A stretch of DNA of 64,000 bases from Eubacteriales bacterium (GTDB lineage Bacteria; Bacillota; Clostridia; Oscillospirales; CAG-272), in the NCBI GenBank assembly GCA_045541375.1, contig JAZQJB010000144.1:87493-151492 (forward strand). Direction: 5' to 3'. The notes below the pieces were generated by a model, which was not told the DNA's origin, made no database searches, and saw only the letters and a list, made by a program, of their open reading frames with translations. Below are positions 60,597-62,878 of the stretch, piece after piece. Made by a program: the position numbers and the translations under genes. Numbering within the stretch: the stretch's first letter is position 1; the number at the start of each line of letters is the position of its first letter.

Positions 60597-62878
60597 ATGA
60601 ATAACATTTTTGAAATTGATAAGCAAATAAAAGCAATGGCAGGCAGAATTGCCGCTTTGCGAGAGATCGAGGGGTACTCAGCCGAATATATGGCAGAGCA
60701 AACAGGTATTTCTGTCGCAGAATATCTCGATTGCGAAGCCGGTCGGGCTGATCTAACATTCGCATTTCTGTTCAGATGCGCATCTGCTCTGGGGATCGAC
60801 GTAACCGAAATTATAGAAGGTACGGCGCCCAGACTGAAATCATACACTTTGACACGAAAAGGCCGTGGTCAGCGTATAGAGCAGGCGCACGGAATGACTT
60901 ATTACAATATCGCTCATTCCTTTGCAAACAGAACTTCGAACCCACTATACGTTCACTGTGAGTATTCGGAAAAGGCCGAGTCTTCTCCTATTGCAGTAAC
61001 GACACACGCAGGTCAGGAATGTGATATCGTAATCAAAGGTCGGCTAAAGGTTCAGGTAGGTGAACACACCGAAATTCTTGAGGAAGGCGACAGTATTTAC
61101 TACGACAGCTCAACACCTCACGGTATGATAGCTATCGGAGGCGAAGATTGCTACTTTTACGCCATCGTTCTCCTCCCAGATGGGAATCAGGATGAAAACA
61201 AGATCGTCACACTTGAAGCTACACCCGCCAAAAAGCGCGACACAGAAACACGTGTTTACAGCAAATTCATTACTACCGAAGAAAACGAAAACGGTGCTCC
61301 GATTTCGATTAACTTCAAGGGTGAAAACAGCTTTAACTTCGCCTATGATATCGTTGATACGCTTGGAAGATCCAAACCTGATAAACTAGCCATCATGCAC
61401 GTTGCAGATGACGGTGCAGAGTCCAGAATTACATTCTCACAAGTAAAACGTGCTTCAGCACAGTGTGCGAACTATTTTAAGTCCCTTGGCATCAAACGAG
61501 GCGACAAGGTAATGCTCGTTTTGAAGAGAAGATACCAGTTCTGGTATGCAATGATCGGTCTTCATAAACTCGGCGCTGTAGCTATTCCTGCAACAAACCA
61601 GCTAAAGGAACACGATTACGAATACAGATTCAATACAGCAGGCGTTAAAGCTATCATCTGCGTTGATGACGACTATGTCATCGAGCAAGCCGAGGCTGCA
61701 CTTGCAAAATGCCCCGACGTCAGCATCAAGCTGCTTGTCGGAAGCGAACGCGAGGGTTGGAGAAACTTTAACGAAGAGTACACATTGTTCAGCAGTCATT
61801 TTGAGAGAACCGATGATTCTCCTTGCGGCGATGATCCGATGCTGATGTACTTTACTTCCGGCACCTCAGGTTATCCCAAGATTGCCCTTCACAACTATAA
61901 GTATCCTCTCGGTCATTTCATACAGCGAAGTATTGGCATTGTGTCAACCCCGACGGATTACATCTTACCATTTCCGATACCGGATGGGCTAAAGCAATGT
62001 GGGGCAAGCTTTATGGAGCATGGCTTTGCGAAGCAGCGATATTTGTTTATGACTTTGACAGATTTGATGCATCGAAGATACTTCCTCTATTCCGTAAGTA
62101 TAATATTACAACATTCTGTGCGCCTCCCACGATGTATAGAATGATCATCAAAGAAGATCTTTCGAAATACGACCTCAGCTCGATCGAGCACGCAACTATT
62201 GCGGGCGAAGCTCTCAATCCTGAGGTATTCCGTCAGTTTGAAAAGCAGACGGGACTCAAGATCATGGAAGGTTTCGGACAGAGCGAAACCACATTGGTTA
62301 TCGGTAATCTTGTTGGCAAGTCTCATAAGATCGGATCAATGGGTAAACCCGTACCGATTTATAACGTTGATCTTGTTGATCCCGATGGCAACAGCGTCGG
62401 AATCGGTGATCCCGGTGAGATAGTCATTCATACTGAAAACGGAGCGCCTTGCGGTCTGTTCTGCGAATACTATAACACTCCCGAAAAAACCGCAGAGGTT
62501 TGGCACGACGGTGTATATCACACCGGTGACCTTGCTTGGCGCGACGAGGACGGATTCTTCTGGTATGTCGGACGAGCTGACGACGTTATTAAATCTTCCG
62601 GATACCGAATCGGTCCGTTTGAGATTGAAAGCGTTATTATGGAGCTTCCTTACGTTCTTGAATGCGGTGTTTCCGCTGCTCCCGATGAGATCAGAGGACA
62701 GATAGTCAAGGCAAGTATCGTTCTTACAAAGGGTACCGAGCCTACCGAAGAACTCAAGAAAGATATTCAGAATTACGTCAAGAAGCGCACTGCACCTTAC
62801 AAGTACCCCAGACTTGTAGAATTCAAGTCTGAACTTCCCAAGACTACAAGCGGCAAAATAATCCGCAGCAAACTCTAA
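60597..62878 (+). pseudogene. PuuR-like HTH(XRE)-cupin domain fused to an AMP-forming (ACSM/MACS-like) acyl-CoA synthetase, interrupted by a 1-nt frameshift near 61916-61922
   Basis: Starts at the ATG at 60597 with RBS AGGAGG. Residues 1-70 are an XRE HTH, about 95-190 a cupin, and from about 236 an AMP-binding domain (YFTSGTSGYPK). Frame A carries ...YKYPLGHF, and the -1 frame continues with [33 protein letters not shown]... to the stop at 62878. One extra T in the TTT run restores a 760-aa ORF. Confidence 0.8.

Follow-up and report, generated by a model that had tools for sequence, protein, structure and literature searches.

Why should an acyl-CoA synthetase carry at its N-terminus the two domains of a transcriptional repressor? 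The question arises from a gene on the forward strand of a 64,000-nucleotide stretch of DNA from a Eubacteriales bacterium of the Oscillospirales (GenBank assembly GCA_045541375.1, contig JAZQJB010000144.1, positions 87,493 to 151,492). The whole stretch is called the window below, and positions are counted from its first letter. An initial annotation had described a helix-turn-helix (HTH) domain of the XRE family and a cupin, joined to an AMP-binding ligase, and had suggested a trigger-enzyme-like design in which ligand sensing, DNA binding and catalysis are coupled in one polypeptide. Here we report that the fusion is genuine and widespread, and that the gene lies behind a T-box leader, a tRNA-sensing riboswitch, at the head of what is probably an operon for the synthesis of valine from isobutyrate. 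As a whole, the explanation that we consider best, and that we regard as fairly probable, combines this valine operon with an N-terminal module that acts as a sensor.

An HTH-cupin module joined in frame to a ligase

Pfam was run on the 760-residue protein that results when one missing base, discussed below, is inserted. It places HTH_3 at residues 18-72 (E 3.9e-6, 27.3 bits against a cut-off of 23), Cupin_2 at 134-190 (E 5.4e-13, 48.9 bits against a cut-off of 27.2), AMP-binding at 259-615 (E 1.2e-62) and AMP-binding_C at 676-754 (E 3.1e-20), in agreement with the order of XRE-family HTH and cupin that had been read at the N-terminus. On the forward strand of the window, the XRE-like, five-helix HTH domain (residues 1-78) occupies 60597-60830; it is acidic, and is supported by Pfam HTH_3, HTH_31 and HTH_19 and by the helices of an AlphaFold2 (AF2) model. 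The cupin beta-barrel, with invariant H137, E141 and H175, follows at 60870-61172 (residues 92-192), as indicated by Cupin_2, the AF2 strands and the alignment. Sequence comparison and AF2 delimit a variable cupin-ligase linker (residues 193-245; 61173-61331), of which residues 193-211 are predicted to be disordered. Next comes the first part of the N-terminal domain of the acyl-CoA synthetase (residues 246-441; 61332-61919; Pfam AMP-binding, PDB 3ETC), in frame with the HTH-cupin module, while the remainder of the synthetase (residues 442-760), which includes AMP-binding_C and the motif PKTTSGKIIR, lies at 61920-62878 in the -1 frame of the window. The open reading frame (ORF) of the window has no stop codon between cupin and ligase, and the linker does run in frame into the AMP-binding domain, as had been claimed.

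A homologue search of 5.8 billion proteins gave at least 8000 matches. The architecture was read in the best 120 of these, all of which consist of HTH, Cupin_2, AMP-binding and AMP-binding_C in 758-787 residues. In a one-genome-per-species collection, tblastn confirmed at least 595 matching stretches; the best 80 were taken as loci for examination, and they match across residues 1-257, that is, over the cupin-ligase junction. These 80 loci belong to metagenome-assembled genomes (MAGs) of Eubacteriales, Oscillospiraceae, Acutalibacteraceae, Christensenellaceae and Ruminococcaceae recovered from the guts of ruminants, horses and humans, and in the source annotations the protein is named only 'cupin domain-containing protein' or 'AMP-binding protein'. 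An artefactual fusion was rejected, given the abundance of intact fused orthologues. Orthologues that always have a stop codon at the junction, the case that the initial annotation had set against its own reading, were not found: hundreds are fused, and it is distant relatives that have a stop, with a gap of 3-124 nt. The fusion of HTH_3, Cupin_2 and AMP-binding is thus genuine, conserved, in frame and widespread. Full-text literature searches aimed at the fusion or the operon found no published characterisation, in line with the earlier remark that the architecture was not recognised as a characterised one.

The fusion ORF credibly starts at ATG 60597, because an AGGAGG ribosome-binding site (RBS) lies 6 nt 5' of it, the orthologues begin with MNNIFEIDK in line with this start, and the ORF from GTG 60516, mechanically the longest, crosses the terminator of the T-box leader, for which that start was rejected. 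In the two nearest orthologues (P0001 and P0002) the public gene calls, of 787 residues, start at a GTG inside the T-box terminator; this start is probably mis-called and hides the leader.

The domain calls, coordinates and in-frame junction of the initial annotation were correct; a frameshift some 620 nt further on, and the operon context, had gone unseen. Compared with intact orthologues, the ligase part is broken in the window by a 1-nt deletion at about 61919 (61917-61921, forward strand). In the alignment with DNA of a 95%-identical relative, L001, the window reads GGTCATTT-CATACA where L001 reads GGACATTTCCACACA, and is one base short. Frame 0 reads to ...YPLGHF and continues through 75 out-of-frame codons to a stop at 62144, and the rest of the ligase forms a second ORF at 61997-62878 in the -1 frame, with its stop at 62878; one inserted base gives the reconstructed protein of 760 residues. 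This is also the intact length of the orthologues P0001-P0009, which are 95-99% identical and run uninterrupted through the break point with GHFHTAKYW. A programmed frameshift at 61919 was rejected: there is no slippery heptamer, close orthologues are one base longer there, and other broken copies break elsewhere. Two of the MAG fusion genes (L051, 8001-10206; L073, 1223-3498) are also in two ORFs, with break positions that differ from that of the window, which suggests assembly errors or sporadic decay. Because these two break at other positions, the break in the window is taken as local, not programmed: it is due to a local deletion or to an error of assembly, or else marks a recent pseudogene.

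A T-box leader probably specific for valine and the operon behind it

The gene is preceded by a sigma-70-type promoter (60280-60308, forward strand), with TTGACA, a 17-nt spacer, TATTAT and a TG extended -10 (11 of 12 matches), and the same TTGACA / TGTGnTAtAAT layout is found upstream of the related leaders. Downstream of the promoter, on the same strand, lies the T-box leader (60325-60558), which matches the full model 1-219 of Rfam RF00230 with 92.6 bits (E 4.7e-21). Its Stem I (60330-60426) has a K-turn, a specifier loop and the distal AGAGA / GGUGNAA elements, and scores 68.8 bits (E 4.1e-11) with covariance model R1, described below. The specifier codon, GUC (60413-60415), was assigned from the Rfam and leader alignments and is followed by the purine G60416 and the stem CCCU. 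The conserved T-box sequence AAUUUGAGUGGUACCGCG, with the UGGU of the antiterminator bulge, stands at 60509-60526 in the RF00230 alignment, its part UGGUACCGCG at 60517-60526, and a terminator scan places the intrinsic terminator of the leader, a 15-bp stem and then a T-run, at 60545-60587. With Stem I, the specifier loop, GUC-G at 60413-60416, the T-box sequence and the terminator all present, valine is very probably the amino acid for which this T-box is specific.

Specifiers were compared across related leaders with a Stem I covariance model, R1, that was built from 61 leaders and into which the K-turn and specifier stems were entered by hand; RNAalifold on a MAFFT alignment, tried as a basis for Stem I, had recovered the distal helix alone. 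In the window and 81 loci, R1 found 117 leaders, so that the window leader was aligned with 116 others. The specifier position was defined as the triplet that is followed by the purine and by the 3' strand of the K-turn-proximal stem, the same site as that of AUC and GUC in the Rfam alignments. Registers that read CGU or UCG were rejected, as the GUC register alone gives a purine after the codon and consistent codons for branched-chain amino acids in the 117 leaders. In this column only GUA, GUC, AUC, CUG or CUC occur, the codons of Val, Ile and Leu. A T-box motif lies upstream of 104 of the 113 fusion genes with enough upstream sequence, and most of the fusion genes that lack it directly follow another fusion gene. 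Before the class of paralogue that we call upstream, the codon is AUC (Ile) in 30 of 30 leaders; before the class of the window gene it is GUA in 52 and GUC in 13 (both Val), and a subgroup of eight members, with about 58-60% identity, has CUG (Leu). Since the specifier codon matches the class of the paralogue, the RNA switch before each ligase paralogue assigns it to one of the branched-chain amino acids.

A further 14 Leu T-boxes (CUC or CUG), located after the gene for branched-chain aminotransferase (BCAT) or upstream of the cluster, precede other genes. In the two that were inspected (L035, 7187-8843; L019, 840-5011) the gene is leuA-like, with HMGL-like and LeuA_dimer domains, and in L019 it is followed by an 825-residue fusion of a xylose-isomerase-like TIM barrel (AP_endonuc_2) and another AMP-binding ligase.

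The ligase part (residues 218-758) aligns with residues 25-571 of PDB 3ETC (E 2.5e-194), the MacS of Methanosarcina acetivorans, whose preferred substrate is 2-methylbutyrate (PMC10455477). Its top NCBIfam model is MbcS (NF047394), at 446 bits and under the equivalog cut-off of 850; the ligase is a relative of MbcS and not an equivalog. The MbcS of Staphylococcus aureus selectively activates 2-methylbutyrate and isobutyrate (PMC10026030). The ANL motifs YFTSGTSGYPK, GFGQSETT, YHTGD, GRADDVIKSSGYRIGPFEIE and PKTTSGKIIR can be read in the sequence. The likeness to MacS and MbcS, which share 2-methylbutyrate as a substrate, with isobutyrate in addition for MbcS, runs from end to end of the ligase, whereas the HTH-cupin is left uncovered, the matches beginning at residue 218 of the query (3ETC residue 25) and residue 250 (position 12 of the MbcS model).

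Two more genes follow on the forward strand before the window ends at 64000. One, known from sequence and synteny, encodes a conserved uncharacterised P-loop NTPase of 224 residues between the ligase and vorD (62881-63555); the other, identified by domain search, encodes a ferredoxin-like protein of 68 residues with 2x[4Fe-4S] (63567-63773), the delta subunit of a 2-oxoacid:ferredoxin oxidoreductase that is taken to be 2-oxoisovalerate:ferredoxin oxidoreductase (VOR). In L001 the operon consists of a T-box, an HTH-cupin-ligase paralogue (755 residues), a second T-box, the orthologue (760 residues), the P-loop protein, and then the VOR and BCAT genes, with Fer4 delta, POR_N alpha, TPP_enzyme_C beta and POR gamma subunits (VorDABG) and Aminotran_4. 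NCBIfam identifies the alpha subunit as VorB (546 bits against a cut-off of 399) and the product of the last gene as a BCAT (476 bits against 307). By tblastn, the order of ligase, P-loop gene, VorDABG and BCAT is the rule among the 80 loci, and all four VOR subunits are adjacent in L001 and most of these loci; the window holds delta alone. The upstream paralogue is absent from the window and from a few relatives (L003, L007). In every locus where ligase and VOR are neighbours, the P-loop gene (GHYGSGKT) stands between the ligase and vorD; it does not directly follow the ligase in seven loci, which have a BCAT-like gene or about 0.85 kb of other sequence in between. The P-loop protein gave no NCBIfam match, no relative in PDB and only a sub-threshold CbiA/MinD match in Pfam; a NifH-like role in electron transfer was judged unlikely for a protein with a single cysteine.

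Taken together, these genes would provide a route from isobutyrate to valine. Transcription from the sigma-70 promoter would pass through a T-box leader with a GUC specifier and its own terminator, where uncharged tRNA-Val would stabilise the antiterminator, and the fusion gene would be the first cistron of an operon induced by valine starvation. The MacS/MbcS-type, AMP-forming ligase would convert isobutyrate to isobutyryl-CoA; VOR, working in the reductive direction with CO2 and reduced ferredoxin, would produce 2-oxoisovalerate, and BCAT would transaminate this to valine. Behind Ile (AUC) and Leu (CUG) T-boxes, the sister paralogues would open the same route for 2-methylbutyrate and isovalerate, respectively. 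The direction would be biosynthetic and not catabolic, because a T-box switches on when its tRNA is uncharged. Early work had found that fibre degraders of the rumen and gut use or need isoacids and convert them to Val, Ile and Leu. In rumen bacteria, isobutyrate, 2-methylbutyrate and isovalerate are precursors of Val, Ile and Leu (PMC7356843). Since the Val/Ile/Leu T-boxes, VOR, BCAT and the known use of isoacids in the rumen all point to such a pathway, we consider it likely that an isobutyrate-CoA ligase controlled by a Val T-box opens a ligase-VOR-BCAT operon that makes valine from exogenous isobutyrate.

Some observations weigh against this route and its control. The window T-box lies 0.4 bits under the Rfam gathering score of 93; in four related leaders scanned with RF00230, three reach it (110.4, 110.2 and 96.8 bits) and the direct orthologue in L001 has 88.9 bits. 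The genomes that make up the Leu subgroup are closely related. In L001 (7062-16625) and in most loci with two paralogues, VOR and BCAT are found only behind the Val (or Leu) T-box, while a separate T-box precedes the Ile-type ligase further upstream, so that the model leaves the induction of VOR and BCAT under Ile-only starvation unexplained. The pathway steps rest on T-box codons and homologues, from which the substrates are inferred.

The role of the HTH-cupin module

A profile of the module, built from eight diverse members and searched against PDB, has its best sequence match in 1Y9Q (E 1e-9), an HTH_3-cupin 'transcriptional regulator' of Vibrio cholerae from structural genomics, and also reaches HppE, the fosfomycin epoxidase (1.2e-5 for 5U55; 1.3e-4 for 1ZZ6, over residues 13-184). 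The AF2 model of residues 1-215 (pLDDT 88) consists of five helices (residues 2-25, 29-36, 40-47, 55-65 and 69-74) and a cupin barrel. Foldseek puts 1Y9Q first (E 8e-14, TM 0.35) and gives HppE an E of 2e-13 with a better TM of 0.49-0.51, followed by HEPD and MPnS. H137, E141 and H175 are invariant in 141 fused and split sequences, and in the HMM alignment they match an H, an E and an H of HppE; over the same 141 sequences, 15 invariant and 33 nearly invariant positions indicate that the module is under purifying selection in both forms.

Two groups of known proteins are therefore relevant to the function of the module. HppE, HEPD and MPnS, non-haem-iron enzymes of phosphonate pathways with an HTH-like alpha-domain and a cupin, have the same two-domain fold (TM about 0.5), and the HppE metal triad H-x3-E ... 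P-H aligns with H137, E141 and H175 of the module. Their identity to it is 17-22%, however, and in our case there is no phosphonate context, the hosts are anaerobic and there is no sign of catalysis. The helical domain of HppE is not known to bind DNA. The XRE-cupin transcription factors (PuuR of Escherichia coli, PauR, ErfA and PsdR of Pseudomonas aeruginosa, and 1Y9Q of V. cholerae) share with the module an N-terminal HTH_3 and a C-terminal Cupin_2 within about 190 residues. These factors stand alone, with about 180-200 residues, whereas the module is fused to a ligase of about 540 residues or translationally coupled with one; moreover, its HTH is strongly acidic, the surface that would recognise DNA varies, the search for an operator found none, and transcription is under a T-box. 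A metal presumably takes part in the pocket of 1Y9Q. The same cupin pocket contains D-methionine (PMC7901475).

Relatives of the module that stand alone (about 42-48% identical, 186-196 residues) were traced to their contigs, in six contexts. Five of these have a separate AMP-binding gene of 547-553 residues 3' of an HTH-cupin gene of 190-195 residues, with gaps of 3, 3, 4, 26 and 124 nt, and the sixth is without a ligase gene. Hydrogenoanaerobacterium saccharovorans, Ligaoa zhengdingensis, Zongyangia hominis and two metagenomic contigs are among the sources of split pairs. Compared with the window protein, the split parts are 45% (HTH-cupin) and 57% (ligase) identical. In L082 the RBS of the ligase, GAGGAGGA, is contained in the last part of the HTH-cupin ORF. 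Rfam scans of three split loci gave a T-box in L082 and L084, both with AUC (Ile), and no T-box leader in L086. The alternation of fused and translationally coupled forms, a classic signature of physically cooperating proteins, suggests that module and ligase work together, and a local repressor placed first in an operon would also fit. Just 5' of split pairs and of the HTH-cupin gene without a ligase, there is a conserved gene for a HAD-family hydrolase (L082, 5999-6658; L084, 5980-6633; L088, 2853-3497; L089, 2990-3643; L090, 3273-4001).

The divergence between paralogues is concentrated in the module. Val and Ile paralogues are 51% identical over residues 1-195 (71% within a class), 69% in the N-domain of the ligase (73-74% within a class) and 87% in its C-domain (86-89% within a class). 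In the ligase, two paralogues from one locus resemble each other slightly more, a hint of some gene conversion between them. Six of the seven positions that separate the classes are in the module, including residue 142, between E141 and D143 in the motif H-A-G-Q-E-x-D, and the nearest neighbour recovers the T-box class in 84 of 84 and 83 of 84 cases for the two parts. Residues that discriminate Val from Leu were unusable, the Leu-type sequences being too few and too closely related. With 51% identity between Val and Ile paralogues and six of the seven separating positions, the main difference between a 'Val' and an 'Ile' enzyme appears to lie in the HTH-cupin and not in the catalytic domain. 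Such divergence would fit a class-specific ligand, be it the amino acid or the isoacid; class-specific operators would also fit.

Whether the module binds DNA was approached through its sequence and through the promoters. The HTH region (residues 14-74) has a mean net charge of -5.6 in 123 fused proteins (range -8 to -2) and of -4.8 in 54 stand-alone relatives, compared with +3 in 1Y9Q. In 81 Val-type orthologues that are at least 67% identical, the buried HTH positions M32, A33, Y43, C46, E47, G49 and F55 are invariant, and the exposed positions of helices 2 and 3 (29-31, 34, 40, 41, 44, 45, 48 and 50) are the most variable of the module (1.85-3.2 bits) and mostly acidic or small. The positions that we take to be base-contacting, by alignment with the 434 repressor, have V, A, E and D. 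When 113 promoters were aligned on their -35, a conserved TTGACA, the extended -10 and an A/T-rich upstream tract emerged, and no palindrome common to the family was found among them. An inverted-repeat scan of 101 fusion-gene promoters gave 6.97 against 5.75 in shuffles, with terminators of upstream genes and A/T tracts as top matches. No family-wide operator was found: the -35 alignment and the scan gave only such terminators, A/T tracts and lineage-specific repeats. The evidence leans against DNA binding by the module.

On these grounds, our tentative view, held at somewhat less than even confidence, is that the N-terminal module is a class-specific ligand sensor or regulatory subunit at the protein level and not a classical operator-binding repressor domain. 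The XRE-like and cupin parts would act on the ligase directly, as a subunit where the genes are split, and in the simplest version the cognate amino acid would exert feedback, or the cognate isoacid would be sensed, through the His/Glu/His (metal) pocket of the cupin. Several facts weigh against this sensor. The AF2 model of the full-length protein (pTM 0.64, with a pLDDT below 50 in linker residues 193-211) does not place the module against the ligase with confidence, and neither supports nor refutes a docking of the two. Net charge and variability are weak predictors of DNA binding; charge alone is weak evidence because a bona fide repressor HTH, a DdrOC fragment, is also slightly acidic. 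Characterised fusions of an HTH with an enzyme (BirA, PutA, NadR) bind DNA. Characterised XRE-cupin proteins are DNA-binding repressors, acting locally on adjacent metabolic genes (PMC7901475). The HTH exceeds the Pfam cut-off for HTH_3, and reaches 40 bits in a split homologue, P0424. Finally, a TTGTGAA direct repeat in an 11-bp phase (60247-60253 and 60258-60264), 16-33 nt 5' of the -35, occurs in L001-L003 and not in distant relatives, and the Leu subgroup has TTGCAA-N16-TTGCAA at the same place next to the -35; these repeats are possibly lineage-specific operators, or simply reflect shared ancestry.

The last three of these facts, the sequence match to an XRE-cupin 'transcriptional regulator' and a divergence that would suit class-specific operators are what can be said for a true trigger enzyme. 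Its HTH dimer would bind its own or a related promoter, the cupin or the acyl-adenylate of the ligase would sense the isoacid, as in BirA, and transcription would need both amino-acid starvation, through the T-box, and substrate, through release of the repressor. In BirA, it is the enzyme's own adenylate that is the co-repressor. The resemblance to BirA, NadR and PutA is in concept alone, that of a polypeptide in which an HTH is covalently linked to a metabolic or adenylate-forming enzyme; their folds are unrelated (winged HTH or ribbon-helix-helix, biotin ligase fold), and DNA binding, demonstrated there, is doubtful here. An acidic HTH, with V/A/E/D-type equivalents of base contacts in helix 3 that are hypervariable among close orthologues, and 101 promoters with no palindrome at a fixed position and an excess of inverted repeats due to terminators and A/T tracts, argue against an operator-binding protein. 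The operon has a T-box of its own already, and this is the only regulatory element that was identified; the relation of fused to split forms, together with the translational coupling seen in L082, is more suggestive of a partner protein in fixed stoichiometry. Hence, of the trigger-enzyme-like design first proposed, the fusion in one polypeptide stands, and the DNA-binding mechanism is not supported as it was stated, in view of the T-box, the acidic HTH, its variable exposed positions, the search for a common operator that found none, and the presence of the same HTH-like and cupin domains in enzymes such as HppE; we regard a true trigger enzyme as rather unlikely.

A second possibility, which we consider quite improbable, is that the module is a catalytic, HppE-like metallo-cupin with a purely structural HTH, performing an additional reaction for which isoacid, acyl-adenylate, acyl-CoA or 2-oxoacid would be the substrate. 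The higher TM with HppE than with 1Y9Q, the reach of the profile to HppE over the whole module, and the invariant triad on the HppE metal ligands would agree with this, but the proposed ligase-VOR-BCAT pathway needs no further chemistry and a His/Glu/His site equally suits ligand binding. HppE, HEPD and MPnS use O2 or H2O2, and the hosts here are anaerobic gut Clostridia; no phosphonate genes were found near the fusion gene, among its neighbours in the window or in the 80 loci. More remote still is an operon that is catabolic, with VOR and BCAT working oxidatively, or that primes the synthesis of branched-chain fatty acids with branched acyl-CoA, the module being vestigial or oligomerising. 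In S. aureus, the enzyme of the best NCBIfam match, MbcS, supplies fatty-acid synthesis (PMC10026030), and the fusion gene has no VOR nearby in 14 of the 80 loci. Where MbcS primes lipid synthesis, however, the genomic role of the fusion ligase, with VOR and BCAT, would be amino-acid synthesis: induction by uncharged tRNA suits the making and not the degradation of an amino acid, specifier class, ligase class and linkage to VOR and BCAT are tightly correlated, and the module is under clear purifying selection. Such a role is thus very improbable.

Relation to known systems and implications

The component families of this system, T-box, XRE-cupin, ANL ligase, VOR and BCAT, are all known. T-boxes control branched-chain amino acid genes in other bacteria, such as the ilv-leu operon of Bacillus subtilis and branched-chain amino acid transporters, and the leaders described here are like them in being canonical T-boxes with specifiers of this kind and a terminator/antiterminator switch; the regulated genes differ, being those of an isoacid-CoA ligase, VOR and BCAT. 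From the specifier of a T-box, the function of the gene behind it can be predicted (PMC2494555), and in the text of that survey of T-box regulons the terms 'acyl-CoA', 'oxidoreductase' and 'cupin' are absent. Our literature searches found no description of a partnership, covalent or operonic, between an XRE-like/cupin protein and a MacS/MbcS-type ligase, none of T-box control of this ligase with class-specific paralogues, and no gene-level definition of the route from isoacids to branched-chain amino acids. Elsewhere in the window, on the reverse strand, there is a tmRNA gene (8266-8634), matched in full length by Rfam RF00023 with 163 bits.

The specifier codons provide an independent label, encoded in the sequence, that assigns Val, Ile or Leu to each ligase paralogue and ties it to VOR and the transaminase. 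In this way, a physiological observation on isoacids becomes a testable gene set, present in hundreds of species that are uncultured, and the split form is available in cultured ones; the gene set bears on the supplementation of feed with isoacids and on the amino-acid economy of the gut. If the proposed pathway is true, and under either the sensor or the trigger reading of the module, these would be the long-sought genes of 'isoacid' assimilation. We can suggest only as a possibility, and a less than probable one, that the module represents a new kind of allosteric sensor that gates adenylate-forming enzymes, with a metal-containing cupin pocket for the cognate branched-chain amino acid or isoacid, so that the reductive route to Val, Ile and Leu would be under the double control of a T-box and of the module, or else a DNA-binding AND gate of T-box plus trigger enzyme. 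Should the module prove to be an allosteric or regulatory subunit, or a DNA-binding trigger domain, it would establish a new control principle for acyl-CoA synthetases, and would show the actual role of part of what is now annotated as 'XRE-cupin regulator'.

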